Counted from the first letter of the stretch, positions 69 through 64,000 are shown. The stretch: 64,000 nt of DNA from Candidatus Spyradenecus sp. (GCA_045535075.1 JAZSKX010000013.1:1-64000), one strand, 5' to 3'. A program made the numbers and translations. The notes: generated from the sequence alone by a model not told the origin.

Positions 69-743
69 CTATTGCGGAGGAAGCACAACGCGGGCGCGAA
101 AAACGTCCGGATACGGATAGTGCAAAATGTATTTACCGGAAAAATACGAATCGGCAAGAAGCGATTCAAGCTCCACGGTCTTTGCGGGAACGACGCCGAG
201 TGCGTCGGATTCCGGCGCGAGCTCGCCGCCTTTCCAGTAGAGGATGCCGTTGGTGAGGGAATGTTTTTTGCCGGGAGAAATGAGTTTTTTCACCAAACCG
301 AAGAATGCAGGCAGATTCGTTACCGCGCGTCCCGTCACGAAGTCAAAATGTTTGCCGAGTTTTTCGACGCGCCCGACGCGGGTTTCCACGTTTTTGAGTG
401 CGAGTTTTTCGGCGATATCGGAAACGACGAGAATTTTTTTCGCAATCGAATCCATCAGCGTAAAATGTGCGTGCGGATAAAGCACGGCGAGGAGAAGTCC
501 GGGAAAACCGCCGCCGGTGCCGACATCGATGACGCGCGCGCCGTTCATCAGCGTCAGGAACGTTCCCGCCGCAAGGCAGGGCGCGTAGTGGTGCCATTCC
601 AAGTTGTCGATATCTTTGCGGGAAACAAGGTTGATTTTGGCGTTCCACTCGCGGTGAAGCGCCGCCATGGCATTGATTTTTTCCCAAGTTTCCGCAGAAA
701 ATTGCGGGAACGCGGCGCGGAGTTTTTCTAAAGATTCGAGCAT
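69..743 (-). CDS. rsmG: 16S rRNA m7G527 methyltransferase
   Basis: WNAKINLVS, SAM motif IDVGTGGGFPG, DSIAKK, FDFVTGRAV. Confidence 0.93.
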   Translation of the reverse strand: MLESLEKLRAAFPQFSAETWEKINAMAALHREWNAKINLVSRKDIDNLEWHHYAPCLAAGTFLTLMNGARVIDVGTGGGFPGLLLAVLYPHAHFTLMDSIAKKILVVSDIAEKLALKNVETRVGRVEKLGKHFDFVTGRAVTNLPAFFGLVKKLISPGKKHSLTNGILYWKGGELAPESDALGVVPAKTVELESLLADSYFSGKYILHYPYPDVFRARVVLPPQ

Positions 744-759
744 TAAAAAGTTATATCTG

Positions 760-811
760 ATAGCTGATAACGGAAAAGTATTTTACGTATCAACTATCCG
801 TTATCAGCTAT
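760..811. repeat. 15-bp perfect inverted repeat between lpxA and rsmG
   Basis: ATAGCTGATAACGGA (760-774) and TCCGTTATCAGCTAT (797-811). Confidence 0.8.
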
Positions 812-820
812 TCCTTTAAA

Positions 821-1594
821 TTAGTGGCAGCCGCGCTTGGTGCTGCGGTAGAACTCGACGAGTTTTTGAATGTGCGGATTCGCGGCAAGCTCCGGATTTT
901 CCAAAATAGCTTCCATCGCCTGCGTGCGGTTCAAATTCTGGTGGTAAATGATGCGGTGCGCGAGGCGGAGAGCCTTGATATCATCCGCGGCGAAGCCTTT
1001 TCGCTGAAGCGCAACCATGTTGACCATCTTTGCGCTGACGTTTTCCGTGCCTTCGACAATCATGTAAGGCGGCACGTCCTGTACGATGCGGGAACACGCT
1101 GCGAGCATGGCGTAATCGCCGATGCGGCAGAATTGGTGAATGCCCGTTCCCCAGCCGAAATTGACGTGGTCGCCGCAAACAACGTGCCCGGCAAAAGCCG
1201 CCTGCGAGCTCATCACGAGGTGGTTGCCGATGATGCAATCGTGCGCGACGTGCGAGTAGGCGAGAATGTTGTTGTCGTTCCCGAGAGTTGTCCATTCGCC
1301 TTCTTTCGTGCCGCTGTGAACGGTAACGTATTCGCGGAAAACATTGCGGTCGCCGATTTTGGTGCCGACGCGTCCGCCGTCGTGTTTCAAATCCTGCGTT
1401 TTTCCGCCGATGACGGCGAAGGGGAAAACTTCGTTGTTTTCGCCCATTACGGTGTAGCCTTCGACGCAGGCGTGGTGGTGAATTATCGTTCCCGCGCCGA
1501 GCGTAACTTCTCCGCCGACGTAAGCGTAAGCGCCGATTTCGACATTTTCTCCGAGTTGTGCGCCCGGCTCAACGATTGCAGTGGGGTGAATCAT
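821..1594 (-). CDS. lpxA: UDP-N-acetylglucosamine O-acyltransferase
   Basis: MIHPTAIVEPGA start, hexapeptide repeats, HVAHDC, IHQFCRIG, QDVPPY. Confidence 0.96.
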   Translation of the reverse strand: MIHPTAIVEPGAQLGENVEIGAYAYVGGEVTLGAGTIIHHHACVEGYTVMGENNEVFPFAVIGGKTQDLKHDGGRVGTKIGDRNVFREYVTVHSGTKEGEWTTLGNDNNILAYSHVAHDCIIGNHLVMSSQAAFAGHVVCGDHVNFGWGTGIHQFCRIGDYAMLAACSRIVQDVPPYMIVEGTENVSAKMVNMVALQRKGFAADDIKALRLAHRIIYHQNLNRTQAMEAILENPELAANPHIQKLVEFYRSTKRGCH

Positions 1595-1733
1595 TTTTTG
1601 AAAGATTAAAGGTTAAAGTTTAAAGATCAAAGAAAGTGAGAGCTTAGAGGTATTTGCTTTAAGGGAATTTTGAAGTTCTAATTTCTTCTTCGGTAATATC
1701 CCTCAGCTCTAAGCTATCGCTTCTCAACTTTCT

Positions 1734-3062
1734 TCAGTATTTCGGCGCGGGCGTGAGCGTGAACATCACGTCGGCGGAGGAAACGACTTCTTCTCCGACG
1801 CGGCATTCGGCGGATGCGGCGACGATTTTGTTCCCGCGGTTTTTCGTGATTTTGGCGGAGATGATGACCTGATCGCCCGGCGTAACCGGCTTGCGGAACT
1901 TTACTTTGTCCGCACTCATAAAGAAGCAGACATTGCCTTCGATACTTGCTTTGGAAAGGAGAAGCAAGCCGGAAACCTGCGCCATGGCTTCGAGCTGAAG
2001 CACGCCCGGCATGACGGGATTGCCCGGGAAGTGTCCTTGGAAAAACGGTTCGTTAATCGTTACGTTTTTCACCGCCGTGATTTCCTGTGCTTCGTGATCG
2101 ATATTCAAAACGCGATCGACGAGTGCAAAGGGATAGCGGTGCGGGACGAGGTTCAGGACTTGGCGAATATCGAGAGTGGTTGCATCGGGTTCGATAACGA
2201 GCTTTGCCGGCTCGATTTTTTTCTTCGGCGTGAGCATTTGCTCGCGAATTTTTGCAGAGAGCTTGGCGTTGAGCGCGTGCCCGGTGCGCACGGCGATGAT
2301 GTGCGCCTTAATCGGTGCGCCGATAAGTACGATGTCGCCGACCAAGTCCATAATTTTGTGGCGGACGAATTCGTCCTTAAAGCGAAGCGGTTCCTTGGAA
2401 ATGATTTTGTCTCCGCGGATGACGATGGCAGAGTCGAGCGAGCCGCCTTGAATCAAACCGGCTTTGAGAAGCGGCTCAATATCTTCGTAAATCGTGAACG
2501 TGCGCGCCGGCGAGAGCATTGCTTCGTAGATTTCCGGCGAAACGTCGATGGTGAGGTGTTGCGTGTGCACGCCGCGATCGTCGGCGGAGGTGCAGGTAAT
2601 GCGCAAGCCGTCGTGCGGGAGCGCGATGATGGAGCGGTTCCCGTCGACGATGGAAACGGGTTCTTTGAGTTCGAAATATTTGCGGTCCTTATCCTGCTCG
2701 ACAATGCCGGCTTCCTGGATGAGCAACACATAGGGGCGCGCGGAACCGTCGAGAATCGGCGGCTCGGATTCGTTCATTTCGACATAGCAATTATCGACGC
2801 CCATTCCGTTGAGTGCGGAATTGATGTGCTCAATCGTATGAAGCTTGATGTGGTTTTGCTCGACGGTGGTCTGGCGTTGCATTTCGGAGCCGAGTACCAA
2901 ATCCGCGACGGGGCGCAATTCGGGTTTCCCGTAAAGATCGACGCGGCGGAAAACAATACCCGTATCGACGGGAGCCGGCTTAATGGTGAGGGTTACGTCT
3001 TTGCCGGAATGGAGCGCTTTCCCGCGAACGGAAGCTTCTTTTTGGATTGTGCGTTGTTTCAT
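1734..3062 (-). CDS. lpxC/fabZ: bifunctional LpxC deacetylase / FabZ dehydratase
   Basis: Start revised to MKQRTI (ATG 3062); LpxC TIEH, PILDGSA, ARTF, HKIMD; Fab[26 protein letters not shown]. Confidence 0.95.
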
Positions 3063-3140
3063 AAAAACGTTGCTTGTTAGGGTTTCCCCAAATATGACAA
3101 AAAGTATTCCTGCTGTAAAGCAACGAAGCAGGGCGAGGGC

Positions 3141-3176
3141 AATAAAAAACGTTCCCGTAGGTGAGTACGGGAACGT
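3141..3176 (-). terminator. intrinsic terminator after OPT gene built from inverted CGGGAAC motifs
   Basis: ACGTTCCCGTA-ggtgag-TACGGGAACGT stem, TTTTTATT on minus strand. Confidence 0.75.
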
Positions 3177-3201
3177 CGGAGGTTTAAATCCGGTACCGGA
3201 A

Positions 3202-5304
3202 TTAGCTTCCGGAAGCGAGGATTGCCGTTGCCGCCATTGCTGCGAGTGCGCAGGCGATGGATTCGCCGCCGACCAAACCGGATGCGAGCGCGACCGAGTA
3301 GTTTTCTTCGCTTTTTTGGTGGAGCTTGTTCCAAAGCCAAATGCCGATCGCGCCGATTGCGAAGGATGCGGCATTGTTGAACGCAGCCGGAAGCGTCAGA
3401 ACAATCCCCATCCCCATGGCAGACGGCATATACGGGCGGAATTTCGGAAGGAGTTTTTCCAAAATCGGAATCGCGATGCCGATGATTGCGCCGATAGACA
3501 TTGCCCAGTAAACCGTCGTCGGGAGAGACATGGAGGCATCGTTCAAAAATTCGGCTACGGCTTTCCACATACGAGCGGGAGGCGCCGCGTAGTTTTCATC
3601 CAAAACTTTAGCGTTCGGGACGAGCAGTTTCCAAATCGGGTAGGCGATTATCGTTCCGATACAAATTGCGAGCAACTGCGTCCAGAATTGAATACGCGGT
3701 TTCAAGCCGAGCAGGTTTCCGAGTTTCATGTCGGACATGAGGTCGCCCGACGCGCCGCCGGCAGCTGCCGTTACGCCCCCGGTGATAAGATTTGTGCTGA
3801 CGTTCCCGCGTGCGCCCGGCATCACGGAATAAATGAGCTGGGAAATTTTCCCCATAGCTCCGATCGGATTCGTGTCGGCTTCGCCGCAGGAGCGCGCGCA
3901 AATTAAGCCGAACGCGCCCGCAAGAAAGATTGCGAGAACACCGAGATACCACGCCGTGTTAAACGCAAAGTGGAGCGTAACAATCAAGCCGATTGCCGAA
4001 GGAATTACACCGATGATAAACCATTTCATCGGGACTTCGACGTCGGCGACGGGATCGTCGGCGTTCGCGTTTTGCGCTGCGTTCTTGCCCGGGAAGAGCC
4101 CCGAAAACGCGCGTCCGATGGTGCGCCATTGGAATGCCAAGGCCGTAAAGCTCGACATCACCATGATAGCGGTTCCCATCCAAAGCGACCAGTAAACGAC
4201 GCGGAAGTTGCCGAATGTGCCGTCCGGATTTACGGTTACTTCAATATTGCGGAAGATGTCCGTTCCCGCGTTCAAAATATCCTGAGAAATCAGCCACGGT
4301 GCGATCACCCAGTCCAAGGCAATTGCCGTGAAGAACATCGTCAGCGAAACGCGCAATCCGCAGAGCATTCCCGCGCCGATGAGCAAAACGGACGCGTCGA
4401 GCGAAACGCCCGGAAGATTGGCTTTGTCGTCAACGATTGCTTTTACGCCTTTATCGGATACGACAGTTGATCCTTGGATGCCGCCCCAGATTTTGAGCGG
4501 GTTGAGGAAGGCGGGAAGGTCGATGACCTCCGGGATAAACGCAAGACGTGTGCAGAAATCGGAGATTTTTTCGCTGCCCGTTTCCTTGAACGCCGCCGCC
4601 AGTGTCGGAAGCTGTTTGATGATGCCGAGTACCGCTGCGAAGCCGAGCGCACTGAGGAGCGTGCGCACTTTATTTTTGGTGACGGCGCTTCCGCTATCCG
4701 CGTAGAGCGATTTCAGCGTTTCTGCGGAAGCGATTGCGCTCGGGAAGCGGAGACGCTCCTGATTGATGAGCGCGCGTTTCATGGGAACTGCGAGGCAGGT
4801 GCCGAGCATGGCGCTGAAAAACAGCGTCGGAACCATCTTATACCACGGCGCGGGGCCGACCAGTTCGGGCGCTAGCCCGGAAGTGCTGAGTTCCAAAAGC
4901 ATCAATGCCCCGAAGGCGGAGACGACGGTGTGCGTCGTTGTCATTCCCGTCACGGAAGCGACGGACGAGGTTGCCGCATTTTCCAAAACACCCATCGGCT
5001 TGATGCGACCGCCCGAGAGCGAGCGCATGGCGTTAAACACGACGAAAGAAAGGATAACTGCAACAAGGGCGATCCCGAAGCCCCAGCCGATTTTCAGCGA
5101 GGTGTACATGCTCGACGCGCACGCGAGAATCCCGATTAGCCCGCCGAAAATTGCGCCGCGGAGCGTCAATTGCGGTTCTTTATCCGCGCGGTAAATGTGC
5201 TTGCGCCAATAGGCATCGCGCTGTTCCGGCGGAATCCTGTCCAAAGCGAACACGGATGTATCGACTTCCGGTTCGATAGGGTTAGTAGTCTGATTTTTGC
5301 TCAT
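3202..5304 (-). CDS. OPT family oligopeptide transporter
   Basis: [53 protein letters not shown]; many TM segments. Confidence 0.9.
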
Positions 5305-5396
5305 AAGCCGCCCAATATGGCAGTTTTATCTTTCGGGGGCAAAAAGTTTTTTCAGGCAGTTTCGTGCATGACGTTCCCGCGAGGTACGTCGCATAC

Positions 5397-5442
5397 AAAA
5401 AATCCCGGAAGCGGCGGGCAATGCCGACTTCCGGGATTTTTT
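5397..5442 (-). terminator. intrinsic terminator after rpoD
   Basis: AAAAAATCCCGGAAG...CTTCCGGGATTTTTT inverted repeat 15 nt past the stop. Confidence 0.8.
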
Positions 5443-5456
5443 CAGAAGACACGAAA

Positions 5457-7646
5457 CTAAAGGAGTCCGTCTTCCTTGGCGAATTGATTGAAGCTCGGTC
5501 CCGAGACATCTTGGTCGCCGTTTTCGAAGAAGCCGTGGAGTTGGCGGAGGCGCACCGGATGGCGCATTTTCCGGAGAGCTTTGGCTTCAATTTGGCGGAT
5601 GCGTTCCCGCGTAACATTGAAGAGCTTTCCGACTTCTTCGAGGGTGCGTGAATAGCCGTCTTTCAGTCCGAAGCGGTAGATGAGAACTTCGCGTTCCCGT
5701 TCCGTCAGCGAATTGAGCACTTGGATGATTTTTTCACGGAGCAGGGCGGTAGCGGCAATGTCATAAGGATTTTCTGCCGCCTTGTCTTCGATGAAATCGC
5801 CGAAGCTTGTATCGTCGCCGTCGCCGACCGGGCTTTGGAGCGAAATCGGTTGTTGCGCCATTTTCATGATTTGTTGGACGCGTTCGACCGGCATTTGCAT
5901 TTCGTTCGCGACTTCTTCCGGCGTCGGTTCATGTCCGAGTTCCTGGAAAAGTTGCTTTTGAATTTGCATGACCTTGTTGAGAGTTTCGATCATGTGCACG
6001 GGAATGCGAATTGTGCGTGCCTGGTCGGCAATGGAGCGCGTGATTGCTTGGCGGATCCACCATGTTGCGTAAGTCGAAAACTTGTATCCGCGGCGGTACT
6101 CAAATTTTTCAACCGCTTTCATCAGCCCCATGTTACCTTCCTGAATGAGGTCGAGGAAGGAAAGTCCGCGGTTTGTGTATTTTTTTGCGATGGAAATGAC
6201 AAGCCGCAAGTTGGCTTCGACCATGTTTGTTTTCGCACGGTGGGCTTGTTGAAGGCAGGTGCGAACTTCTTTATAAATTTCCAAAATTTCTTCGCTCCCG
6301 ATGCGATATTGTTTTTCCAGCGCTTTGACCTTGCCGGTAATTTCCTTCGGGTCGAGTTTGCGTGCGTGGCGGTCCTTTCGCTCAATCAGATGGAGCTGAT
6401 AAACGTATTCGCGGAACGTGTCGATAATCGGCTTGAATGTTACCAACCATTCTTCGAGCACTTTCATTTTAAAGCAGAACTTGCGCAGAAGCGGGCGAAT
6501 GTCTTTTTGCAATTTAATAAAACGTGCGTACCCGCGGCGGCGCGTTTCTTCGTTGGACCCGCCGATGTATTCCATCCACGCTTTGTCGAGCTTGGCGGAA
6601 ATCGCTTCGACGGCGGCAATCGCCTTAGGAAGCATTTTGTAATAGGCGTCGCGGGATTCGACCTTTTTATCCAGGACGACGCGATCAAAACGCTCTTCAC
6701 GCGCATTGAGGCGGCGAGCGACTTCGAGTTGCGGCGCAAGGGTCAGCCAAATTGAGCAAAGCGCGTCCTGCGCTTTCGATTCCGCTTCTTCGATGCTCTT
6801 TGAAATTGAAATTTCCTGGTCTCGGTTCAAGAGCGGAACCTGTCCCATCTGGCGCAGATACATGCGAACCGGGTCGTCGAGAATGTCAACCTGTACGGAG
6901 CGCAAGGCTTCTTCTTCTTCCGTGCTCAGTTTTGTCTTGTACGCCGCGACATCTTCGTTTTCGAGAATTTTGATGTCGAGGTTGGCGAGAAGGTCGAGAA
7001 TCTTTTCAAAGGCTTCCGGCGACGAAGTCGTCGCGGGAATCGTGTTATTGATGTCCTCAATCGTGACGTAGCCCTGTTGGTTGGAGAGAGCACGCAGATC
7101 ATGCATGCGGGCGTTGATTTCATTTTGATCCATCGTCGCGATGACAGAGGAATCAAAATGTGTTTTTTCGGAAATTTCCCGGATTTTCTGTGCGTCTTCC
7201 CGTTGCTTTTTTTGCTGTTTGGCAAGCTCGGCAGAGCTCAGAACCGGCGAACGATCCGGCGCGTATTTAACTTCGCCGATAATCTTTTTCTCCGGTTTGG
7301 GAGCTTTTTCTTTCGGGGCAGGTGCCGGTTTTTTCGCCGGAGGCGTTTTCTTGGTTACCTTCTTTTTTGCGGGTGCCGCGGCGTTCTTAGGCGCGGGTTT
7401 CTTGGAAGCGGAAACCTTAGACGGAGCTTTTTTGCTAACCGGTTTCGCCGGAGCTTTTTTTGCGGGAACGGGCTTTTTCCCGACAGTTTTTTTCGCGGGA
7501 GCGACCGATTTCTTGGAAGATGCTTTGGGGGTCGCGGCTACTTTTGTAGCAACTTTGGATTTCGGAGCGGGGGCTTTTTTTGCGGGAACAGTTTTAGCGG
7601 GGGTGCGCGCGTTTGCCGCTTTTTTTACCTTTTTTTTATCTGCCAT
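5457..7646 (-). CDS. rpoD: primary sigma factor sigma-70
   Basis: [55 protein letters not shown]; downstream of dnaG. Confidence 0.97.
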
Positions 7647-7666
7647 GATGAGGTGGGTCGTATTGT

Positions 7667-9529: not shown

Positions 9530-9600
9530 CGAGTGTTGTAAATCGCAAGAGCATAAGTTTGCCGGCTTTCGGAATCAAGCACGGCTTTCCTCCGTAACGC

Positions 9601-13044: not shown

Positions 13045-13059
13045 GGCGGGAGAAACCTT

Positions 13060-13584
13060 TTAGAACTTTCGCCAAATGCAGAAGCGATTGGCATCCGAAA
13101 GCAGGAGAGCCCCGGCAATCGCGAGGGTGTAGATTCCGAGAGTTCCCGCAGATCCGGAAGGATCGATGAGCGAAAGTCCGAGTGTGAGCGCGGCAAAAAT
13201 CATTCCCAAGGCGAACAGGGAAGTGCGCGTGGCGATGCCGAGCAATACGCCGCTTCCGAACAGAATCAGAGCCGGGCCAATCGCGTAATAAAACACATGA
13301 AGAAGCCATTCCGGAAGAAGCGCGTCGCCGAGAAGTTTCTCGAATTCGCGCGCGGGAACGCCGATGTAGGAATCAAAATCGTAGCTGCGAGCGATGCTCG
13401 CCGTCATTTCGCCGGTTTCCGGATTTTCTTCAAAGATCTTCTCCGATCGGGCGAACTTGGCGAGTCCGCTTGCCAATGCGGAAGCGCCAATCCACAGACG
13501 AAGCACTAAAAATGCAAGCGTGCGGGCAGGCGGGCAGGCGGGATTTTCTGCGGGAACGGAGGCGGTGTTGTCGTCGGATAGCAT
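13060..13584 (-). CDS. DoxX family membrane protein
   Basis: FLVLRLWIG..SGLAKF and LLGIATR pattern, four hydrophobic segments. Confidence 0.7.
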   Translation of the reverse strand: MLSDDNTASVPAENPACPPARTLAFLVLRLWIGASALASGLAKFARSEKIFEENPETGEMTASIARSYDFDSYIGVPAREFEKLLGDALLPEWLLHVFYYAIGPALILFGSGVLLGIATRTSLFALGMIFAALTLGLSLIDPSGSAGTLGIYTLAIAGALLLSDANRFCIWRKF

Positions 13585-51501: not shown

Positions 51502-51532
51502 TTTCGCAAGGGCAAAAGGAAGTCGGAAATCA

Positions 51533-52297: not shown

Positions 52298-52299
52298 TA

Positions 52300-58200: not shown

Positions 58201-58293
58201 TTCCCAAAAGATTTCACGCGGATTTTCTTGCGCCGAAAGCAGGAGCGTTCCCGCGACAAAAGAAGAAAGAGCAAAAGCGATTATTTTTTTCAT
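52300..58293 (-). CDS. bacterial alpha-2-macroglobulin family protein
   Basis: Signal peptide; FTDRAIYRPG, VEEYKRPKF, RKNLQETAFF, PNAPRFLREGD, GWSWFPG, YAPEFSAHS. Confidence 0.92.
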   Translation of the reverse strand: MKKIIAFALSSFVAGTLLLSAQENPREIFWENALSVIREKPRDAIAAFDEIAGQAEQAAAWDEYALALCLRAATRAQIEEGRNESVTAVRELQRAVAEAPSVEARAFLSSVLACTLRDLSNERRFGQMRPQTPLADNEGKDDDLAIWSNDRLAAAALAAYQNVFEDAETLKKIPIAMFAAKQTSNKKILKIFRGNAFGIFSLNDSQPADFPTLYDFFAQDAVKFYPTLTRRVPAAEKAYRELLDAWKEFHVNDADKSAYARAVFAGFSPESESYEADLKNFTKEFSYYPIAAEAFAALAQNAIEDERREEAFLFAKEGFEKYKQHKNSAECAAVLDSMTSQHLGALSTEATWFDAESSQIAFKAQNIGKIHFRAVPWDWQDFLRRERNRPENLSKDERREILLSEEGAITWSQELETFTDFAEHEFVVPAPFEKFEPGFYFITASADPNFKSFSDDRIPYMTVWVSDIAVITEAIPFRRNAKDVRTLRGYVVDAKTGEPLGNVEIAAWNKVYGGDRVPVESVKSTADGSFELPGLKADFVALAVAPDGNAVSISEKTTWRGTERKPDNDIGKLFTDRAIYRPGQLIHFKGIRARYDADVPGSGKVLPGEKVEVKLFDANDKEVAKTECYTNAFGSFAGTFTAPAGLLKGAFKLKFDKIEKYISVEEYKRPKFELSIESPEKQVILGQAAEVLVSAKAFTGMPLADAKITWNATESSFADYGFEEKLIARGEGKLDSDGNFKIAFPTKTKKLSKREARKLSPSEKLEAERELDRAYSVEIAVTDSTGETHIETTRLEIGNCGVRADLNVNDKKAEVRLTNLSFKPLAVPATLSIYEAVLPEKIRRFRLPAGYPRNDEGVRGKKLFETQFTSDVKTGVTHIEIPENALPESGSFQVVLSGKDAFARPFEKTVGLTKIGGNATRCPVRQPIILSKEAGYNHETQVGETFSFVWGSGYDSARARVEIAKNGKPLKIFWTIKGNTQETINVPVTQELIGGFNVRLTQFRDGRMFSSDYYVSVPEPKKDLKIEWQRFRSQLVPGGAEVWTARITLPDGTPASAEMLALLYDRSLDSFCNNWQDIGSFDFSSYDSRNWRPSLIKNQVLSTLYSSEAFPETPYAKRSLYEAIDWILPWRKAPKFSEFGSMPVGFVSRKARGAAPRAATVQAAPSPESIGEDWMEDCESENLVNGAFAVAHSAEEPESEEGSREQRIDTPPSPRKNLQETAFFHPFINTDANGVAQITFVVPEALTGWRFIAFAHDKNLRSGSLENKSIVTSKPLMAQPNAPRFLREGDTIEFPVKISNSGKTPLSGKAQIAFNRADNRKDVFAELCDEAREQAFSVPAGATKTLTWKIRVPENCGFLTYRATARAEEFSDGEEALLPVLPRKISVSESANFLVRAGTEREAALDLKNKKIDQLSIEINADPAWDAFLALPRLALLARENDSSDSIFYRFYTNKLAEKIAKENPDYRRKFEALTALGNDAQDLHSPLAQNTAKNIALEATPFVADADDETAQRRAVAQLFDGNTMAQESARALAVLRERLAELKGDGWSWFPGAQNVSPRITRTILIGLARLVEIGALEKSEIEFAHSAVIAQDRWAKSKFNRFNAKGERVPAPLDCELVDWLYMRHLTRQTGDLDQAWNHYIAEACKPENWTKLPRYSQAQIAIVLAGGTYPVSERIVESIRQHAVTSEDLGMYWKNGYSLCPWCVEFASIETQAMMIELFAKVANDAEAVAELKTWLLTQKQAQAWQASRATAEAVFALLRTNAPNANADDDAGTLTEDAMRGNATTAAENVAEPEVFAGTQRIAAGGKRFASGEIVPALETLKMKNPGKNPIFVSAVWNYEADIDSIENYTPSNGFKIRKSLWKKAPGDDGKARLYPIRAEMLLPGDEIVVRLVIEADRDFEFVHVKDLRASGCEPTGTRSGYRWNNAVWYYTTSSDTAEEFFFDRLPQGKHVLEYSIRAVHSGKYSAGHAEIRSLYAPEFSAHSKSSALETR

Positions 58294-58352
58294 AGTTTAA
58301 AGGTAGTCTTAATTTAGCTTCTTAGGCGTCAACTGCGTTTTCAAGGCGAATT

Positions 58353-59024
58353 TTAAAAGAAATCGAATTCTCCCTGAAGGTGTTCGCGGAATTTTTTTGC
58401 ACTGGTGCTGGCGGAAATCAAATCGAGGATCTCCGAGCGTTCGAATGCGGGATGCTCGCACATATTGATGAGCAATTCCGCCGCAGCGATTGCGTCGTAG
58501 AGCGCGCAGTGGTAGCGGGAACGATTCTTCGGACAAAATTTTGCGGCGGTTTTTTCAAGACGGTCGCCGATTTCGAAACGCTCGATTAAGGTCGAAAGTT
58601 TGTGCGAATGTTCGTGCGGAAACCATGTTTTGGCAATGCGGCAAGTGTCAATCCACGGTCCCCAGCTGTTAATCGGCGGGCAGCCGGTAATGGAAAAATC
58701 CGGAACTTTCCCGGGAACGCTCCATACGGTACCGAGCATCCCGATTTCCGCCGGCGCGTGGTGCGACCCGAACAGTCCGCTTTGGCGAAGTCCGGAAAAA
58801 ACATTCCAGTCGTTCTCGACGGGAGCGAGCCCTTCGACATCGTCGTTGAAAATGCCGTGAACCTCGGATTCTTCAAGCGGGATAAAGCTTTTGACGCCGC
58901 AGAGTCGCGTGCGTGCGTCAATCACTTTTCCGCCGAGCAAAGTCGCAAAACCGTATTCGACGATTCCGGAATTGACGGAGCCTTCAAAGTCCAAAACGTG
59001 AATCGGAATATTCTTCCAAAACAT
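58353..59024 (-). CDS. DEDDh 3'-5' exonuclease
   Basis: Start revised to MFWKN (59024); VLDFEG, VHGI, WIDT, HCALYDA. Confidence 0.8.
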   Translation of the reverse strand: MFWKNIPIHVLDFEGSVNSGIVEYGFATLLGGKVIDARTRLCGVKSFIPLEESEVHGIFNDDVEGLAPVENDWNVFSGLRQSGLFGSHHAPAEIGMLGTVWSVPGKVPDFSITGCPPINSWGPWIDTCRIAKTWFPHEHSHKLSTLIERFEIGDRLEKTAAKFCPKNRSRYHCALYDAIAAAELLINMCEHPAFERSEILDLISASTSAKKFREHLQGEFDFF

Positions 59025-59058
59025 AAGGTGTGTGCCGATAGAGTTTTTGGAAAAGTGT

Positions 59059-60027
59059 TTAAAAGTCGACGCCCTTAACAAGGCGTTGGACAACTTTTTT
59101 TCCGGTCATCGCCTCGTACCATGCGGCAAACTTTGCGGGAACGCGCATTTCGGAAAGCAATTCATCAAAGACCTGAACGCGTGTTTTGAGCTTTCCGGCA
59201 AGCGGATGTAAAATAAAGGACAAATCGCGCGGGCGGGAATCTGCGGCGCCGGGAACGTCCGCATAGCTGATTTTTTTGACGAGTTTTTCAGCCGGCAACT
59301 CGAAATGCCGGGCAATGCGCGCTCCGATTTCATAGCGGGAAAGCGCCTCGCCGCCCGCCCAATGGTAAACTCCGCTCAGGTTCGGGCGTTCGCACAACTC
59401 GACAAGAACATCGGCAAGATTGCCTGCGCTGACCGGCTGGCGAATTTCTTCGCCGAACAGAGCAGCCTGCTTTCCCGCTGCCCAATCCGCGAAAAGCCGC
59501 TCGTGCAAACTACGCGTTCCCGGGAAAGAATTTCCGGAAATGAGCGTCGTTCGAATGATACTTGCCGCGGACTTTCCGAATTTAAGGACTTCGCGTTCGC
59601 CCATGAGTTTGGTTTGCGCGTAAAGATTGCGCGGGAGCGGCATGTCGGTGTGCTCGTAATTTCCCTTGTCGCCGTCGAAAACCATGTCGGTCGAAACATG
59701 AACAAAGCGTCCGGAAATGTGGTTGGCAAGCATTGCCAATCGGCGCGGGAGCGCGACGTTGAGGCGCTCGGCGCGAGCCGGATTTTCGACGGCTTCAGCG
59801 ATAGACGTAACGGCGGCGCAATTAATAATCGCATCGGGGAATTCCTGAAGAATCAGCGATTCCAAGGCATCGGTATTTTCCAAATCCGTTTTCACGCGGC
59901 GGACCTGCGGGGGCAGAATCGGTTCCGTAGTATGCAAAACCGCCGTTACGTCAAAGCCTCGACGCAATGCGGAAAAAACGGTTTCTCGCCCCAGAAATCC
60001 GGCGGCTCCGGTAATAAACACTTTCAT
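59059..60027 (-). CDS. RmlD-like SDR oxidoreductase
   Basis: Start revised to MKVFITGAAGFLG (60027); HVSTDMVFDG, YAQTK. Confidence 0.85.
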   Translation of the reverse strand: MKVFITGAAGFLGRETVFSALRRGFDVTAVLHTTEPILPPQVRRVKTDLENTDALESLILQEFPDAIINCAAVTSIAEAVENPARAERLNVALPRRLAMLANHISGRFVHVSTDMVFDGDKGNYEHTDMPLPRNLYAQTKLMGEREVLKFGKSAASIIRTTLISGNSFPGTRSLHERLFADWAAGKQAALFGEEIRQPVSAGNLADVLVELCERPNLSGVYHWAGGEALSRYEIGARIARHFELPAEKLVKKISYADVPGAADSRPRDLSFILHPLAGKLKTRVQVFDELLSEMRVPAKFAAWYEAMTGKKVVQRLVKGVDF

Positions 60028-60037
60028 TGGAATGAAG

Positions 60038-60868
60038 CTAAATGCTTCCTTGCGGGAACGCAAATTGATTCAGGCGGGGAACACAGGCGAGCAGGGCGCG
60101 CGTGTATGCGTGTTGCGGGTGAGCAATGAGCTCGCGAGCCGGGCCTTCCTCGAGTTTTTCTCCCCGATAAAAAACGCAAACGCGATCGGCTATCTCGGAG
60201 ACAATGCCGAAATTATGCGTGATGAGTAAAATGCTCATGCCGAAGCGTTCCCGCAAATCGAGCAACAAATTCATGATTTGCTTTTGAATCGTCACGTCAA
60301 GCGCGGTCGTCGGTTCGTCGGCAATGAGAATTTTCGGATTCGCGGCAAGCGCCATTGCAATCATGACGCGTTGCTGCATACCGCCGGAAAACTCATGCGG
60401 GAACGCGCTCGCCAATTCCGGACGAATACCGACGGCATCAAGTACTTCCGCAACGCGCGCGCGGCGTTCCCGCGACGGCATTCCCGGAAGATGAATTTTC
60501 ATCATCTCTTCGATTTGAAAACCGACGGAGTAAGTCGGGTTCAACGAACTGAGCGGATCTTGGAAGATATAGGCGATTTCTTTACCGCGAACCTTGCGTA
60601 AATCGCGTTCCCGCAAGCCGATCAGCTCTTTCCCTCCAAGCAAAGCGCTCCCGCGGATTTGACAGGTCGGAGCTTCCGGAAGCAACCCCGTTAGCGCCTG
60701 CGAAGTTACGGATTTCCCGCTCCCGCTTTCGCCGACAATCGCAAGAATTTCGCCTTTATTCAGAAAAAAGGAAATATTGCGGACGACCGGCGAAACTTTT
60801 CCGCGGGAACAAAAATCCACGCACAAGTCGCGAACAGACAAAAGCGGAGTTTTACCTTCTTTGAGCAC
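60038..60868 (-). CDS. oligopeptide/dipeptide ABC transporter ATPase (OppD-like)
   Basis: GESGSGKS, FSGGMQQR, IADEPTTALD, ITHN, HAYT. Confidence 0.93.
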   Translation of the reverse strand: MLKEGKTPLLSVRDLCVDFCSRGKVSPVVRNISFFLNKGEILAIVGESGSGKSVTSQALTGLLPEAPTCQIRGSALLGGKELIGLRERDLRKVRGKEIAYIFQDPLSSLNPTYSVGFQIEEMMKIHLPGMPSRERRARVAEVLDAVGIRPELASAFPHEFSGGMQQRVMIAMALAANPKILIADEPTTALDVTIQKQIMNLLLDLRERFGMSILLITHNFGIVSEIADRVCVFYRGEKLEEGPARELIAHPQHAYTRALLACVPRLNQFAFPQGSI

Positions 60869-60907
60869 AGCCCCTTTAATCTTTTTACTTTAATCTCTAA
60901 TCTTCCT

Positions 60908-61939
60908 TTACTCGACGGCAAGCATCAGCGAACTCAAGCCGCTTCCGATTCCGAGCAGAGCGATTTTGTCGCCGTTGCGAATAGCGCCGGCTTCGCGCGC
61001 AAGCGTGAGCGTCGCGGGAAGCGAAACCGAGCCGACGTTGCCGAGTCGATCAAAGCTTTGCCAATCCTTGGAGCGGTCGAGCCCGAGTTTTTCAAAGAGA
61101 GCCGCCGTGTGGCGTACGCCGACCTGATGCGTAATGATGCGCGCCGGCGTATTTTCGTCCCATCCGGTTTCTTTTTTGAAATCCTCCCAAGCACGTGCCG
61201 CAAGTGAGATTCCGGCTTCGAGAAGCTTTTCCGAATCGGTTTGCATGGCAAGTGCGTTCCCGCTTGTGTCGCCTTCGCAGAGGCGATTCGCTTCGGAGTC
61301 CGTTGCGACAATGCCGCCGGTCAAATGCGGCGTCCCCGCGGGAACGAGCGAATCATGCGCAAGAATTGCGGCAACCGCTCCCGCGCCGATAGTCAGGTTC
61401 GCAAAATAAGGTTTAACGGAATTGCGCGTAAGCGACGTGTCGGCGTTGAGTTTGGCAATCGTATTTTCAACGAGCGGACGCCCGTTCTCGCCGGAACAAA
61501 TCAGCGCGCGACGAATTTGTCCGGATTCGATTAAGCCGGCGGCAACGACCATCGCGTTGAGGAAACCGAGGCAGGCATTCGAGACATCGAAAATCTGCGT
61601 GCGCTGCGTTAGCCCGAGCAAACCGTGCAGATAAGCCGCCGTCGACGGTTCCAGACGATCGCGGCAAACGGACGAGTGAATCAGCAAGTCGATATCTTCG
61701 GGGCGAGTTCCCGCACGTTGCATGACTTTTTTTCCCGCGAGCGCCGAGGCTTCGGACGGGCGAATCGCGTGCGCCCAAAAACGTCGCTCCCGAATGCCCG
61801 TCATCAACTCAAGGCGTCCGTAGGGCAATTTCAAACGTTCGTAAACGGGAGCCAGTTTTTGTTCCAAGTCCGCTGAAGTCCAAACTTCGGGCGGCAATTC
61901 GACTGCCATTTGCTCGATGGCGACGTGTGAAAATCGCAT
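60908..61939 (-). CDS. OleA-like 3-oxoacyl-ACP synthase III / thiolase
   Basis: LELMTGIRERRFW, RDRLEPSTA, DVSNACLG, THQVG, GNVGSVSLP, LLGIGSGL. Confidence 0.85.
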   Translation of the reverse strand: MRFSHVAIEQMAVELPPEVWTSADLEQKLAPVYERLKLPYGRLELMTGIRERRFWAHAIRPSEASALAGKKVMQRAGTRPEDIDLLIHSSVCRDRLEPSTAAYLHGLLGLTQRTQIFDVSNACLGFLNAMVVAAGLIESGQIRRALICSGENGRPLVENTIAKLNADTSLTRNSVKPYFANLTIGAGAVAAILAHDSLVPAGTPHLTGGIVATDSEANRLCEGDTSGNALAMQTDSEKLLEAGISLAARAWEDFKKETGWDENTPARIITHQVGVRHTAALFEKLGLDRSKDWQSFDRLGNVGSVSLPATLTLAREAGAIRNGDKIALLGIGSGLSSLMLAVE

Positions 61940-62035
61940 AGTGAAAAACTCCGATTAGCGTTCGTTCCCGCCGGAAATCCGAACGGGAACGCGTGAAGCT
62001 TTCTTTAGTCTCTAATCTTTAATCCCGGGCACTTT

Positions 62036-62593
62036 TTAGACTTTTTTCAAGTCGGCTTCTTTCGCCTTGAACGCCGCGTCAATAACGGCAATCCATTTGT
62101 CCGTAAGCGCCTGAATGTCTTTTTCCGTACGCTTGCAATCGTCTTCCGAAGCTGCTTTGTCTTTGTTGATTTTTTTGACGAGTTCAAGACCATCGCGGCG
62201 CGCCGTGCGAACGCGGACGCGGCCTTCTTCGGCGTAGCGATTGGCGACTTTTACGAGTTCGTTGCGGCGTTCACCCGTCAATTCCGGAACCGGGCAGCGG
62301 ACAATCGTTCCCTGAACGGACGGCGTAAGCCCGATATTGGCGCCGAGAATCGCTTTTTCAATGGCCTTGAGCAAGCCTTTATCGAAAGGAGTAATGACAA
62401 TTGAACGCGCATCCGGCGTGGAAACCGTCGCGCAGTTTTTCAGCGGCATCATGCTTCCGTAAGCTTCTACCTGAACGCCTTCAACCATAGACGGTTGGGC
62501 TTTTCCCGTATTGATTGTGGAAAATTCGTGTTCGGTGTGAGCGACGGCTTTTTGCATCGCTTCGTTGGTGGCATCTGTGATTTGTTTCAGCAT
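62036..62593 (-). CDS. frr: ribosome recycling factor
   Basis: INTGKAQP, VEAYG, PELTGERR; follows pyrH. Confidence 0.96.
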   Translation of the reverse strand: MLKQITDATNEAMQKAVAHTEHEFSTINTGKAQPSMVEGVQVEAYGSMMPLKNCATVSTPDARSIVITPFDKGLLKAIEKAILGANIGLTPSVQGTIVRCPVPELTGERRNELVKVANRYAEEGRVRVRTARRDGLELVKKINKDKAASEDDCKRTEKDIQALTDKWIAVIDAAFKAKEADLKKV

Positions 62594-62636
62594 ATTTTTA
62601 AGTATTGAAATTAAAATTACAAATTCGCGGGAACGC

Positions 62637-63383
62637 TCAGCTTACAAGCGTACCGATTTCTTTATCTCCGAGAATCGCGCGTTCAATTGAGCCTTTTTCG
62701 TTCATCGAGAAAACAAGAATCGGCATTTTGTTTTCCTGACAAAGCGCAAATGCGGTTGCATCCATGACTCCCAAATGCTTCATGAGGGCTTCTTCGTAGG
62801 AGAGTTTGGCGTAGCGCGTCGCTTTCGGATCTTTCATCGGATCGGCAGTATAAATGCCGTCAACCTTTGTTGCCTTAAAGATGATGTCGGCATGCACTTC
62901 ATTTGCCCGCAAGGCTGCAGCATAGTCCGTCGTACAGAAGGGATTTCCCGTTCCCGCCGCGAAAATAACGACGCGGCCCTTTTCCAAGTGACGGATTGCT
63001 TTGCGGAGAATGAACGGCTCGGCAACTTTGTCCATCGGAATCGCAGTTTGTACGCGAACTTCGATTCCGTTTTTTTCGAGGCAATCCATGATGGCAAGCG
63101 CGTTAATCGTCGTCGCGAGCATGCCCATATTGTCGCCCGTCGTCCGGTCAGTTCCGTTGTTTTTCGCTCCCGCAAGACCGCGGAAAATATTTCCGCCGCC
63201 GACGACGAGGCAAACCTGCACGCCGAGAGCGTGGAGCTTTTTCATTTGCTCGGCGAGATTTTTAAGGATTTTCGGATCGAACGGATCGCCCGTTTCGTAA
63301 TTTTTTAGGGCTTCTCCGGAAATTTTCAGGACAATGCGTTTATACTTCGGAAGTGCTTTTTTAGAAGGAGTTTTGCGTGGCAT
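62637..63383 (-). CDS. pyrH: uridylate kinase
   Basis: LKISGEAL, GGGNIFRG, GMLATTIN, GTGNPFCTTD, VMDATA. Confidence 0.97.
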   Translation of the reverse strand: MPRKTPSKKALPKYKRIVLKISGEALKNYETGDPFDPKILKNLAEQMKKLHALGVQVCLVVGGGNIFRGLAGAKNNGTDRTTGDNMGMLATTINALAIMDCLEKNGIEVRVQTAIPMDKVAEPFILRKAIRHLEKGRVVIFAAGTGNPFCTTDYAAALRANEVHADIIFKATKVDGIYTADPMKDPKATRYAKLSYEEALMKHLGVMDATAFALCQENKMPILVFSMNEKGSIERAILGDKEIGTLVS

Positions 63384-63395
63384 GGTTTTTATTGT

Positions 63396-64000
63396 CTAAA
63401 GTTTTCGGACGGGGTCAACAGCGTTCCCGTCGGAATCGTCACTCGCCGCCGGGTTCTCATCGTCCTCATAGGTGTCGGGAGCATCATAATAATCGTCGCC
63501 TGCGTTTTTTCGCTCTTCCTCGTCTTCGTCGTTGCGGTGCGCCTCGCGAATGGCTTTTAGAAGGCGTTTGAATCGATCTTGAGTTTCCGCGACGGACTGT
63601 GAGTGTAAGTTGTAACGAATTACAAGCATGCGGCAAACGACGGTCGCGACAACGACGATGAGCGCGGCCGCCGTCGGCGGGATTGTTTTATAAAGGACAA
63701 CAAAGAGCGCGCTGGCGAGTACGGCGATTCCCGTGTAAAACTGTCCGGGCTTGAAAACCATCGGCTCGTCCCGCGCCGCGATATCGCGCAAGAGCCCGCC
63801 GCCGACGGCGTTGATCATTCCGATTCCGATAGCGACGGGAACGCCGAGGTCGTAAGCAAGCGCTTTGTTGGTGCCGAAAACAGCGTAGAGCCCGAGCCCG
63901 GCAGCATCGCAAAGAATAATAAAATTATCAAAGCGCATGAAAAATTCGCCGAAATACATGCCGAAGAGCCACGCCGCCGTGAGAGATATGATATAACCGT
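63396..64000 (-). CDS. trimeric intracellular cation channel (TRIC/UPF0126) family protein, 5'-truncated by window edge
   Basis: DAAGLGLYAVFG, GMINAVGGGLLRD; frame open to window end. Confidence 0.85.
   Translation of the reverse strand, partial: GYIISLTAAWLFGMYFGEFFMRFDNFIILCDAAGLGLYAVFGTNKALAYDLGVPVAIGIGMINAVGGGLLRDIAARDEPMVFKPGQFYTGIAVLASALFVVLYKTIPPTAAALIVVVATVVCRMLVIRYNLHSQSVAETQDRFKRLLKAIREAHRNDEDEEERKNAGDDYYDAPDTYEDDENPAASDDSDGNAVDPVRKL

Follow-up and report, generated by a model that had tools for sequence, protein, structure and literature searches.

A dense non-palindromic DNA word in a PVC-group gut genus: a candidate self-recognition tag for DNA uptake

The genomes of an uncultured genus of gut bacteria belonging to the PVC group (Opitutales-like, and represented by metagenome-assembled genomes only) carry one copy of the non-palindromic word (G/A)CGGGAACG(C) per about 250-400 bases. 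The data reported below show that this word has accumulated, that it has done so by substitution, and that its maintenance is ongoing. As for its meaning, we suggest, with a probability of roughly 0.55 as judged from the genomes, that the word might be a self-recognition tag of the genus, that is, an uptake signal of the DUS/USS kind having an independent origin. The more specific proposal, namely that it might be the recognition signal of a sequence-specific uptake system which the PVC group evolved on its own, using a receptor not related to ComP, has in our opinion about an even chance of being right.

Abundance, coding context and terminators

The window, i.e., the whole stretch of 64,000 nucleotides that was analysed, contains 212 copies of CGGGAAC/GTTCCCG (119 on the plus and 93 on the minus strand) versus 13.9 expected, and none of 100 dinucleotide-preserving shuffles attained this number (13.88 +/- 3.72 copies, maximum 28). 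The preliminary description of this DNA had put the first 10 kb at about 24 copies, about 10 of them forward and about 14 reverse, and our recount gave exactly these numbers; among the example positions that it listed, the forward ones are 1 base low, the preceding G having been included. The copies continue across the window, as it had stated, with the exception of a motif-free stretch (18470-22107), and 170 of the 212 extend to the 8-mer CGGGAACG/CGTTCCCG.

1..64000, both strands: motif field of 212 copies, in coding and intergenic DNA, 3.5/kb outside the low-GC island

In the whole genome (1,949,087 bp, i.e., 1.95 Mb, in 18 contigs), CGGGAACG occurs 5,159 times (2,527 on the plus and 2,632 on the minus strand), about once per 378 bp; it is the most frequent 8-mer, and its sub-words and super-words head the rankings from k=6 to k=11. 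The density is 2.65/kb, every contig longer than 90 kb being uniform at 2.4-2.9/kb, and the spacing between copies is near-random (CV 1.09), without visible regularity. Markov models predict 183 (order 1), 268 (order 2), 587 (order 3) and 1,401 (order 4) copies, whereas orders 5-6 come near the observed count solely because the motif itself is in the training data. In the predicted genes, 4,337 copies were observed versus 475.6 +/- 24.4 (maximum 520, 20 shuffles) after a within-gene shuffle of synonymous codons and 155.8 +/- 11.8 after a shuffle of codon order. The enrichment is thus 28-fold over the order-1 model and 9-fold and 28-fold over the two codon-preserving nulls; the over-representation of this non-palindromic word beyond composition and codon usage is confirmed, and the idea that it does not derive from codon usage, put forward in the preliminary description, is supported. 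The logo reads y-c-(G 62%/A 24%)-CGGGAAC-(G 79%)-(c 46%), and information is absent outside positions -3 to +8.

At least one copy is present in 1,226 of the 1,493 predicted genes, and genes contain 84% of all copies; intergenic DNA is 1.4 times as dense as coding DNA. The word is used in all six frames, with a preference for those encoding AGT/TGT and VPA, in agreement with the preliminary description, which had reported several frames and the recurrent peptides AGT, RER, VPA, RSR and GN. It encodes 82% of the AGT and 91% of the VPA tripeptides, and VPA, AGT, RER and TGT occupy the first four places among the tripeptides of the proteome ranked by over-representation (3.6-5.0x, versus 0.95-1.09 for reversed controls). 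The fact that tripeptides spelled by the motif top the proteome implies a force acting at the DNA level and overriding neutrality at the protein level.

A second context is represented by inverted pairs. Genome-wide, close pairs are far more often of the '-+' (265) than of the '+-' type (90); 169 of the former lie between genes, and the modal spacing is 19. The '-+' pairs occur in 60 of 173 convergent (35%), 93 of 691 tandem (13%) and 5 of 174 divergent (3%) intergenic regions, and a T-run or an A-run lies beside 149 of 165 pairs. Five pairs of the window, with their predicted hairpins, are the following.

3151..3174, no strand assigned: GTTCCCG..CGGGAAC between two minus-strand genes, -18.5 kcal/mol
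25970..25995, no strand assigned: GCGTTCCCG-loop-CGGGAACGC followed by a T-run, -28.8 kcal/mol
37741..37766, no strand assigned: inverted pair and T-run, -24.6 kcal/mol
42045..42071, no strand assigned: inverted pair between an A-run and a T-run, -25.4 kcal/mol
61964..61990, no strand assigned: inverted pair, -18.3 kcal/mol

The pair at 25970..25995 separates the convergent genes for PEPCK (24119-25936, plus strand) and a radical-SAM protein (26061-27242, minus strand), and its hairpin is consistent with a bidirectional intrinsic terminator. The next two lie immediately 3' of the gene for the methylmalonyl-CoA mutase large subunit (35549-37717, plus strand) and downstream of a PALP-enzyme gene (40768-41988, plus strand), respectively, and the last one lies between the minus-strand genes 60908-61939 and 62036-62593. 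Position and flanks show that intrinsic terminators have co-opted inverted pairs as their stems; the preliminary description had named inverted pairs in terminators among the hallmarks of the Neisseria DUS and the Pasteurellaceae USS. Both the frame bias and the placement in terminators are listed among the properties of known uptake sequences in passages of a recent preprint (bioRxiv 10.1101/2025.10.24.684340).

Foreign DNA, distribution and decay

The tag is missing from foreign DNA. Indeed, a Mu-like prophage of 35.3 kb with a host-like GC content (0.522) carries 0.54 copies/kb versus 2.65/kb, a five-fold depletion, and none of the 29 viral contigs with the same hairpin pattern is motif-dense. 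The genome has 28 motif-free gaps of at least 2.2 kb, about half of them with a GC content below 0.47, and the one in the window lies beside a restriction-modification gene.

18470..22107, no strand assigned: motif-free stretch of 3.6 kb, GC 0.41, within the low-GC island
15779..18766, plus strand: MmeI-family restriction-modification gene bordering the island, with 9 motif copies (host-like density)

The stretch contains a reverse-transcriptase-like gene (18779-21592), a T5orf172 gene begins in it, and it reads as recently acquired, tag-free DNA. The MmeI family itself is present in just 10 of the 19 genomes of the genus and is therefore excluded as the determinant of the motif.

All 18 congeners exceed the control (552-7,777 versus 73-174 copies); 14 of them, with a sampled GC of 45-59%, are dense (5,161-7,777 copies each) and four are weak. 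The logo is unchanged in G009 (sample GC 0.454, 4.24/kb), G003 (sample GC 0.586, 4.55/kb) has identical dominant words, and dialects were not seen across the genus; the motif was also found in contigs from four runs belonging to four studies. Elsewhere in the phylum, none of about 260 sampled genomes (among them 6 from four sister genera, those of 16 other families within the order, and 200 more from the phylum) has a dense motif, the maximum being 0.30/kb. The word is thus common to the congeners and not dense in neighbouring lineages, a point that the preliminary description had left to sister genomes.

The fate of single sites was followed using the motif 7-mers common to G018 and G004 (n=28). 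The strong G000 retains 50% of them versus a baseline of 23.4% (Fisher p=0.0025), whereas its weak sister G013 retains 25% versus 26.2% (p=1.0); in a count of ancestral sites, 16 were lost in G013 alone and 3 in G000 alone (binomial p=0.004). Motif sites are conserved in G000 about twice as well as ordinary sequence, while in G013 they decay at the ordinary rate; hence, there is a molecular drive that is both active and switchable. At least three quarters of the copies have disappeared from two lineages, yet these retain the same genes.

Uptake machinery and alternative explanations

Components of a DNA-uptake apparatus are encoded. ComEC (in 41 of the 41 genomes covered), DprA, a ComFC-like gene, two PilB, PilT, PilC, PilM, a secretin and pilin-like genes were found, so that the competence inventory suggested at the outset holds for ComEC, DprA and the type IV pilus and fails for ComEA, which was not detected: PF12836/TIGR00426 yielded nothing but a Tex-like frame of about 800 aa, which scores below the TIGR cut-off, and a weak match that is a phage integrase. 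The comF and pilin-like genes already noticed in the window were both located.

51533..52297, plus strand: ComFC-like gene, weak Pfam matches to a double zinc ribbon and a phosphoribosyltransferase domain
45118..45813, plus strand: pilin-like gene, prepilin N-terminal methylation motif and weak T2SSG match

The ComFC-like protein is 74% identical in the weak G013 and 58-61% identical in the strong G004 and G018. The ComP_DUS domain (PF16732) was found in none of five genomes at E<=0.01, in a search that had no positive control, and the Pfam scan of the pilin-like proteins gave N_methyl/T2SSG matches only and no receptor of the ComP_DUS type. Motif-free sister genera and weak congeners have competence and pilus genes that are just as intact, with identities that track the phylogeny; being alike with and without the motif, the machinery permits uptake and leaves both the specificity and its loss unexplained.

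On the basis of the genes encoded, it is possible to propose that double-stranded DNA would be bound and imported via the type IV pilus/secretin machine and ComEC. A putative receptor would favour word-bearing fragments, and the incoming conspecific strands would be recombined via DprA/RecA. If such fragments are preferred and recombined, then word-bearing alleles would be over-transmitted, and the word might build up through point substitutions at those places where the encoded proteins can accommodate it (molecular drive). In the two lineages mentioned above, the preference might have been lost, leaving the tag to the observed decay, like that of ordinary sequence. Every genomic hallmark listed in the preliminary description was thus recovered, and none of its computational grounds for rejection applied. 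All these hallmarks are, however, equally expected under any sequence-biased drive of recombination or repair.

According to a first alternative, which we consider unlikely, the word would be made or kept by intracellular modification or mismatch repair (a methyltransferase/nuclease or a correction of the very-short-patch type), uptake being irrelevant. The motif has a CpG at each end, the restriction-modification systems of the window include the MmeI-type enzyme, which would recognize an asymmetric site, and the cyanobacterial HIP1 is, according to portions of PMC13756078, similarly dense in coding DNA and recognized by two methylases. However, among the six enzyme families examined, no methylase family (C5, N4/N6, N6, MmeI, Dam) is common to the strong G000, G018 and G009: the C5 methylase is confined to G000, where it lies within motif-free gaps, G000 lacks N6_N4, G018 lacks both N6_Mtase and Dam-like enzymes, G009 lacks the MmeI type, and Vsr was found in none of five genomes. 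Moreover, one-mismatch variants of the deamination type are not specifically depleted relative to the others (TGGGAACG 77, CAGGAACG 113, CGGGAATG 411, CGGGAACA 800), the word is without palindromy, and a resident prophage with the GC of the host is depleted five-fold. In the same portions of PMC13756078, the methylases failed the correlation test for HIP1 itself, and the question of HIP1 as an uptake sequence is raised.

An equally improbable explanation places the signal after entry: the word might be a Chi-like or other hotspot, or a protection signal, and word-bearing fragments would recombine more whatever their entry route, with no specificity of uptake. Biased success in recombination would give the same accumulation, depletion in foreign DNA and decay after loss; RecBCD is encoded, and recC lies in the window.

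9601..13044, minus strand: recC (RecBCD gamma subunit), fast-evolving, tracking the phylogeny

The G-rich strand is mildly preferred (54.7% of sites overall, 403:331 in intergenic DNA), and polarity rises to 58-59% when only the 20 bins of strongest skew at each end are considered. These values are well below those of Chi (about 75% in E. coli) and of KOPS, which is higher still; the strong replichore polarity regarded in the preliminary description as indicative of such elements is therefore not seen (about 55:45). The size of the skew is that expected for a G-rich word from mutational skew and sense-strand preference, the latter accounting for part of it, and both density and fold-enrichment exceed those of Chi by an order of magnitude. 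Furthermore, RecC is intact in 19 of 19 genomes and does not change abruptly from strong to weak lineages, its identities (60-62% in the weak clade, 50-51% in G018/G004, 35-47% in deeper lineages) following the order of DnaG.

It is less likely still that each copy is selected for a function of its own, as the binding site of an abundant nucleoid, regulatory or architectural protein, or that terminator stems have spilled into genes. The inverted pairs clearly function at gene 3' ends, intergenic DNA is the denser compartment, and some positions are common to deep lineages, two sites of the aligned dnaG being shared by 14 and 13, respectively, of the 18 sequences of the genus. Nevertheless, intergenic pairs can account for only about 330 of the 5,159 copies, most copies being intragenic, in all six frames and near-randomly spaced; two lineages have shed the bulk of theirs with genes unchanged, and the decay of G013 sites at the baseline rate (25% versus 26.2%) implies that individual copies are dispensable. 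Lastly, an artefactual origin, be it from composition, codon usage, repetitive peptides, mobile elements or the assembly, to which the odd strand skew of two 20-kb bins (9:66 and 11:55, the latter harboring a repetitive gene of 4,269 aa) might point, has a negligible probability and is effectively refuted by the nulls based on dinucleotides, Markov models (orders 1-4), synonymous codons and codon order, all of them exceeded, by the lack of conservation in the flanks, which also speaks against a MITE or REP element, by the persistence of the word at sample GC 0.454 and 0.586, by its presence in 18 independently assembled genomes and in the contigs of the four runs, and by its spread over most genes.

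Significance and comparison with known systems

The literature surveyed reports uptake signal sequences from two families only, Neisseriaceae and Pasteurellaceae. If uptake were confirmed, the word would be the first self-recognition tag of this kind outside the Proteobacteria and a third independent case; it would show that evolution has repeatedly arrived at sequence-specific, 'self-preferring' gene exchange, which would then be no peculiarity of the Proteobacteria. These uncultured bacteria from the animal gut would also probably be naturally transformable, which might help future genetics, and a simple tag would be available for separating native from acquired DNA and for metagenome binning. 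The coexistence of strong and decaying lineages makes both the identity of the receptor and the spread by molecular drive alone directly testable; with the drive naturally off in two lineages, the 19 species genomes would represent a ready comparative screen for the receptor. Should the cause be other than uptake, a drive of this strength without a known enzyme would be even more interesting.

The word resembles the Neisseriaceae DUS, as portrayed in parts of bioRxiv 10.1101/2025.10.24.684340 and PMC7371117, in being short, non-palindromic, distributed on both strands in thousands of copies per genome, located in genes and in the inverted pairs of terminators, depleted in mobile DNA and common to related species whose genomes encode the type IV pilus, ComEC and DprA. 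It differs in its unrelated sequence, in its host (PVC group versus Betaproteobacteria), in the share of intragenic copies (84%), in the uniformity of the word across the genus, and in that the domain of the minor pilin ComP, which binds the DUS, was not found here in the search run without a positive control. The core is also shorter (8-10 versus 10-12 bp), and the density (2.6-4.5/kb) is about 2-4 times that of DUS and USS, which occur about once per kb.

From the Pasteurellaceae USS, the word is distinguished by an unrelated sequence, the lack of AT-rich flanking segments, a different phylum and a higher density. Shared with the USS, according to sections of PMC3458573 and of the preprint cited above (bioRxiv 10.1101/2025.10.24.684340), are the mostly coding location, frame preferences encoding common tripeptides, a measurable effect on protein sequences and pairs in terminators; no receptor is assigned in either.

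With the cyanobacterial HIP1 (GCGATCGC), which part of a 2026 paper ties to pilus and competence genes (PMC13756078), the word shares the nature of a hyper-abundant intragenic octamer, conservation throughout a lineage, secondary losses and an unproven function. Unlike HIP1, a phylum-wide palindrome with two methylases, it is asymmetric and confined to one genus, and a conserved methylase was not found among the five methylase families tested. Finally, octamers of the Chi/KOPS type are likewise over-represented and G-rich, and the genome encodes RecBCD; those octamers, however, are strongly co-oriented with replication and far sparser, whereas the word described here stands at about 55:45 and 2.65/kb.

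Abundance of the word and its imprint on genes and proteins

The preliminary description had counted by eye 24 copies of CGGGAAC/GTTCCCG in the first 10 kb, and our recount gave exactly this figure (10 forward and 14 reverse). The whole window of 64 kb contains 212 copies, against 13.9 ± 3.7 (maximum 28) in 100 dinucleotide-preserving shuffles. In the source genome (G000; a 1.95-Mb assembly of 18 contigs, 52% GC, completeness 99.45%, with the window at C2:1-64000), the 8-mer CGGGAACG/CGTTCCCG occurs 5,159 times (2,527 on the plus and 2,632 on the minus strand), that is, once per 378 bp, and this 8-mer, with its sub-words and super-words, heads all the k-mer lists from k=6 to k=11. Markov models of order 1 to 4 predict 183, 268, 587, and 1,401 copies, respectively, and orders above 4 reach the observed count solely by learning the word itself. 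The flank logo (y, c, G at 62% or A at 24%, CGGGAAC, G at 79%, c at 46%) carries no signal farther out; hence, the information is confined to a word of 8-10 bp, which is not a piece of a longer repeat. The observation of a hyper-abundant word is real and very strong.

Genes were called with a greedy ORF caller based on codon log-odds, an imperfect model (1,493 genes, 88% coding) that overlooked the atypical reverse-transcriptase gene of the window. Of the 5,159 copies, 4,335 are genic (2.52/kb), 821 are intergenic (3.57/kb), and 3 lie across a boundary; at least one copy is present in 1,226 of the 1,493 genes. As had been claimed, the word sits in several reading frames: all six are occupied, in the sense orientation frame 1 (A/T/S/P-G-T; 1,494 copies), frame 2 (G-N; 706), and frame 0 (RER; 398), and in antisense frame 2 (V-P-A/V; 1,193), frame 1 (F-P; 281), and frame 0 (RSR; 265). 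The enrichment persists under codon-preserving nulls, since shuffling synonymous codons within genes leaves 476 ± 24 copies and shuffling codon order 156 ± 12 (20 shuffles each), versus 4,337 observed. The word spells 82% of all AGT and 91% of all VPA tripeptides, and the four most over-represented tripeptides of the proteome are VPA (5.05 times expectation), AGT (4.97), RER (3.76), and TGT (3.57), the reversed controls APV, TGA, and SRS remaining at 0.95-1.09 times. The force works at the DNA level and is strong enough to alter protein sequences.

Some other features of the window concern its annotation:
23654-25882 (-): 742-aa ORF without Pfam match, antisense to the PEPCK gene (24119-25936, +)
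1734-3374 (-): LpxC-FabZ fusion gene
13867-13971: TPP riboswitch, upstream of Thi4/thiE genes
40564-40661: small SRP RNA gene
The 742-aa ORF is almost certainly a spurious open frame and is a caution against longest-ORF gene calling in this genome. The longest LpxC-FabZ ORF runs into the OPT transporter gene upstream (172 bp of overlap), so that translation probably starts farther downstream; the LpxC domain starts at residue 107. Both RNA features are matches at the Rfam gathering score.

Orientation, terminators, and foreign DNA

Over 86 bins of 20 kb, both GC skew (r=0.58) and gene strand (r=0.54) are correlated with the strand skew of the word. The G-rich strand carries 54.7% of the copies, a share that reaches 58-59% in the bins of strongest skew (20 at either end), intergenic copies are divided 403:331 between the G-rich and the C-rich strand, and sense is preferred to antisense both in co-directional (1,413:835) and in head-on genes (913:722). 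Mutational skew acting on a G-rich word, together with a frame preference, is expected to give a skew of this size. Chi and KOPS have strong polarity, unlike the mild skew of the present word. One of the two bins with extreme skew (contig C8, 11:55) holds an autotransporter-like gene, and the other lies on contig C5:
G000 C8:185333-198142 (-): autotransporter-like gene, 4,269 aa, with Peptidase_S6 and PATR repeats

Gap lengths from copy to copy follow a nearly exponential distribution (CV 1.09), with very short gaps under-represented. Close pairs in the order GTTCCCG...CGGGAAC number 265, versus 90 in the reverse order; of these 265, 169 lie between genes, and the modal spacing is 19. Inverted pairs in terminators had been named as a hallmark of known uptake sequences, and the present word shows this hallmark: 60 of the 173 convergent intergenic regions contain such a pair, as do 93 of the 691 tandem and 5 of the 174 divergent ones, and a T-run or A-run adjoins 149 of 165 pairs. 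The window itself holds five intergenic inverted pairs:
3151, 25970, 37741, 42045, and 61964: predicted hairpins of -18 to -29 kcal/mol
In metagenome contigs, the summed depth at the terminator hairpins 25967-26006 and 42035-42078 is many times that of the flanks (743 at position 25983 versus about 50 in run X1), with many loose ends at the window hairpins, and the same hairpin was found in contigs from other loci or relatives.

The word is depleted in foreign DNA. There are 28 motif gaps of at least 2.2 kb in the genome, about half of them below 0.47 GC, and a low-GC island at about 15.8-23.6 kb of the window includes a copy-free stretch of 3.6 kb:
Window 15779-23600: MmeI-family RM gene, reverse-transcriptase-like gene (937 aa), T5orf172 gene, then an HTH + SocA/Panacea antitoxin-like gene
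Window 18470-22107: stretch without motif (GC 0.41), spanning the reverse-transcriptase-like and T5orf172 genes
G000 C16:183462-218724: Mu-like prophage (Gam, transposition proteins, terminase, portal, protease)
The MmeI-family gene has nine copies, a density like that of the host, and the unequal densities suggest that the island is a mosaic whose parts differ in residence time. The prophage, the clearest case of depletion, carries 0.54 copies/kb at a GC of 0.522, versus 2.65/kb for the genome; Dam-like methylase fragments lie at its edge (C16:218681-220103). A search for phages carrying the word yielded 29 viral contigs with the same hairpin pattern, which may or may not belong to phages of this genus, and all have at most 0.63 copies/kb.

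An active, lineage-specific molecular drive

The DnaG sequences closest to that of the source genome, at 87% identity, are labelled 'Candidatus Spyradenecus sp.' or 'Opitutales bacterium', and those farther off are labelled Opitutales, Puniceicoccaceae, or Coraliomargarita; NCBI taxonomy places Ca. Spyradenecus under Lentisphaerota, and on these grounds we call it a PVC-group, Opitutales-like genus. All 18 congeners exceed the control, that is, the word read backwards (73-174 copies). Fourteen of them, with the source genome the strong lineages, have 5,161-7,777 copies in 1.6-2.2 Mb; the weak ones are G001, G002, and G013 (1,347-1,385 copies) and G014 (552). Outside the genus, six genomes of four sister genera have 79-224 copies and 16 other families of the order 8-493, and 200 further genomes from 103 genera of the phylum reach at most 1,157 copies (in 3.8 Mb, or 0.30/kb). 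In some genomes of two families of the phylum (f30 and f37), CGGGAACG outnumbers the reversed word 5-10-fold at a density of only 0.2-0.3/kb, examples being G109 (828 versus 84) and G079 (1,157 versus 183); this excess may reflect composition or a faint related signal. The word does not follow base composition, being dense both in a 100-kb sample of G009 (GC 0.454; 4.24/kb, with identical logo) and in a 140-kb sample of G003 (GC 0.586; 4.55/kb). In the latter strong genome (97% complete), the methylmalonyl-CoA mutase large subunit is unmatched; its identity in G013, G018, G004, and G001 is 94-99%.

Other abundant words were also considered. A 'dialect' in the weak G014 was rejected: copies of its frequent word GGGTTGGTGGTG are not dispersed but bunched, in many cases at the ends of contigs. 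This G-rich word forms, on ten contigs (C1-C10; loci L092-L101), clusters of 3-11 copies per 100-500 bp, which often end contigs of about 5.8 kb, and the clustered repeat seems to break the assembly. G001 and G013 have the word of the source genome at lower density and no substitute; in a 70-kb sample of G013 (L109-L114), AAAGATTAAAGA recurs about 29 times. In G022, of a sister genus, the separate word CCAACACC was discarded: 35 of its 43 copies share a single locus, a single orientation, and the phase, which points to a repeated peptide. Samples of the sister genomes G019, G020, and G021 revealed nothing comparable, and the 9-mer GCCTAACGA is enriched in none of 201 phylum genomes sampled.

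DnaG identity to the source genome is 87-88% for G001, G002, and G013, 71-72% for G018 and G004, 61% for G014, 55-58% for ten species, and 48-50% for G008 and G009, with outgroups at 40-51%. Its high density in the deepest branches makes the word ancestral to the genus, with two later reductions. In a dnaG codon alignment of 18 genus sequences and four outgroups (leaving out G006, with a split match, and seven further outgroup loci), single sites are common to up to 14 genus sequences and to no outgroup.

Nine genes with orthologues in G000, G013, G018, and G004 were compared over 13,563 aligned nt (33 other window genes have no orthologue in all three at the loci examined); they hold 36, 15, 42, and 31 copies, respectively. 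Twenty-five sites are common to G018/G004 and at least one of G000 and G013; G000 has 22 and G013 nine, with 16 losses in G013 only versus three in G000 only (binomial p=0.004). Lineage-specific sites number ten in G000 and two in G013, or 7 versus 2 (p=0.18) without three G000 sites in G000-specific insertions or gapped columns. In a second test, sites were chosen from the outgroup pair G018/G004 alone, overlapping 7-mers not being independent: of 28 motif 7-mers identical in the pair, G000 retains 50%, versus 23.4% of 9,295 others (Fisher p=0.0025), and G013 25%, versus a baseline of 26.2% (p=1.0). Third-position identity between G000 and G013 is 0.625. G000 actively maintains the word and still gains copies of it, and in G013 it decays as any sequence does; no single copy is indispensable, and the force belongs to the lineage and can be switched off. 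These data show that an active, lineage-specific molecular drive exists. Samples of ruminant or other animal gut contain near-identical strains. Population data for window 24100-44000 (contigs from four runs of four studies) have no power in this respect, as of the 40 variant places listed, out of 603, none falls in the 56 motif positions, where about 0.8 were expected.

Predicted uptake machinery, competing explanations, and known systems

A comF gene and a pilin-like gene had been noticed in the window, and both are present there. The machinery of the source genome comprises:
C11:3775-5487: ComEC, with only the Competence domain detected
C9:80972-82117: DprA
Window 51533-52297: ComFC-like gene
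C5:25804-31766: two PilB-like ATPases, PilT, and PilC, then RecD2
C12:6713-13608: PilM and a 984-aa TPR-secretin
C1:259100-262397: four-gene pilin-like cluster, adjoining RuvX and RecJ
Window 45118-45813: one of three more pilin-like genes
ComEA was not found: a Tex-like frame of about 800 aa is all that PF12836 and TIGR00426 match, and another weak match turned out to be a phage integrase. All of the 41 genomes searched in the order have ComEC. A search for the ComP_DUS domain, which had no positive control, gave no match.

The listed genes are intact in the weak lineages too, with identities that track phylogeny, so that the comparison of machinery genes between strong and weak lineages identified no determinant of the specificity of the word or of its loss. 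The four-gene pilin-like cluster is kept in both, in phylogenetic order. A 141-aa pilin (C5:99026-99451) lacks cysteines beyond its N-terminal helix. Its full-length orthologues occur in all 18 congeners, and its matches beyond the genus cover the N-terminus only (with one exception at 38%); it is characteristic of the genus yet also present in weak lineages, and is a lead only. RecC was rejected as a determinant, its low identity to the weak clade (60-62%) reflecting fast evolution. A second secretin (about 780-880 aa) is patchy: it occurs in both weak (G001, G002, G013, G014) and strong (G004, G012) genomes, and G000 and the majority of the strong species lack it. In G001, G014, and G018, a third PilB/GspE-type ATPase and four more clustered pilin-like genes are consistent with a type II secretion set, whose distribution does not track motif density.

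We infer that the drive acts through DNA uptake, and the reading that we favor, with a probability of about 0.55, is that of an uptake signal similar to the DUS and USS (the uptake sequences of Neisseriaceae and Pasteurellaceae), of independent origin. A process of modification or repair might instead have generated the word, as may be imagined for HIP1, the abundant octamer of cyanobacteria. According to PMC13756078, HIP1 correlates with pilus and competence genes and not with methylases, and the authors raise the question of a role as uptake sequence. Such an origin lacks an enzyme here: no family among the C5, N4/N6, N6, Dam-like, and MmeI-type methylases is common to all three strong genomes G000, G018, and G009, Vsr occurs in none of five genomes (six enzyme families searched in all), and deamination-type variants of the word show no special depletion. 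A recombination signal acting after entry, Chi-like or other, would yield the same drive, but is disfavored, since the polarity is weak, the density extreme, and the RecC phylogeny unremarkable. A function of the copies site by site is contradicted by the neutral decay of the word in G013. The nulls exclude an artefact, as does the presence of the word in 18 independent assemblies and in contigs from four runs of four studies.

As for the proposed uptake signal, we found no earlier description of the word, of uptake sequences in Verrucomicrobia, or under the genus name among the open-access papers and bioRxiv preprints searched, and the matches to its letters, among those listed, are incidental (e.g., primers and unrelated sequences). 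A recent preprint (bioRxiv 10.1101/2025.10.24.684340) describes uptake-enhancing sequences as confined to Neisseriaceae and Pasteurellaceae, with a reading-frame bias and inverted repeats in terminators. Set beside that description, the present word resembles the DUS and USS both in its frame bias and in its inverted terminator pairs.
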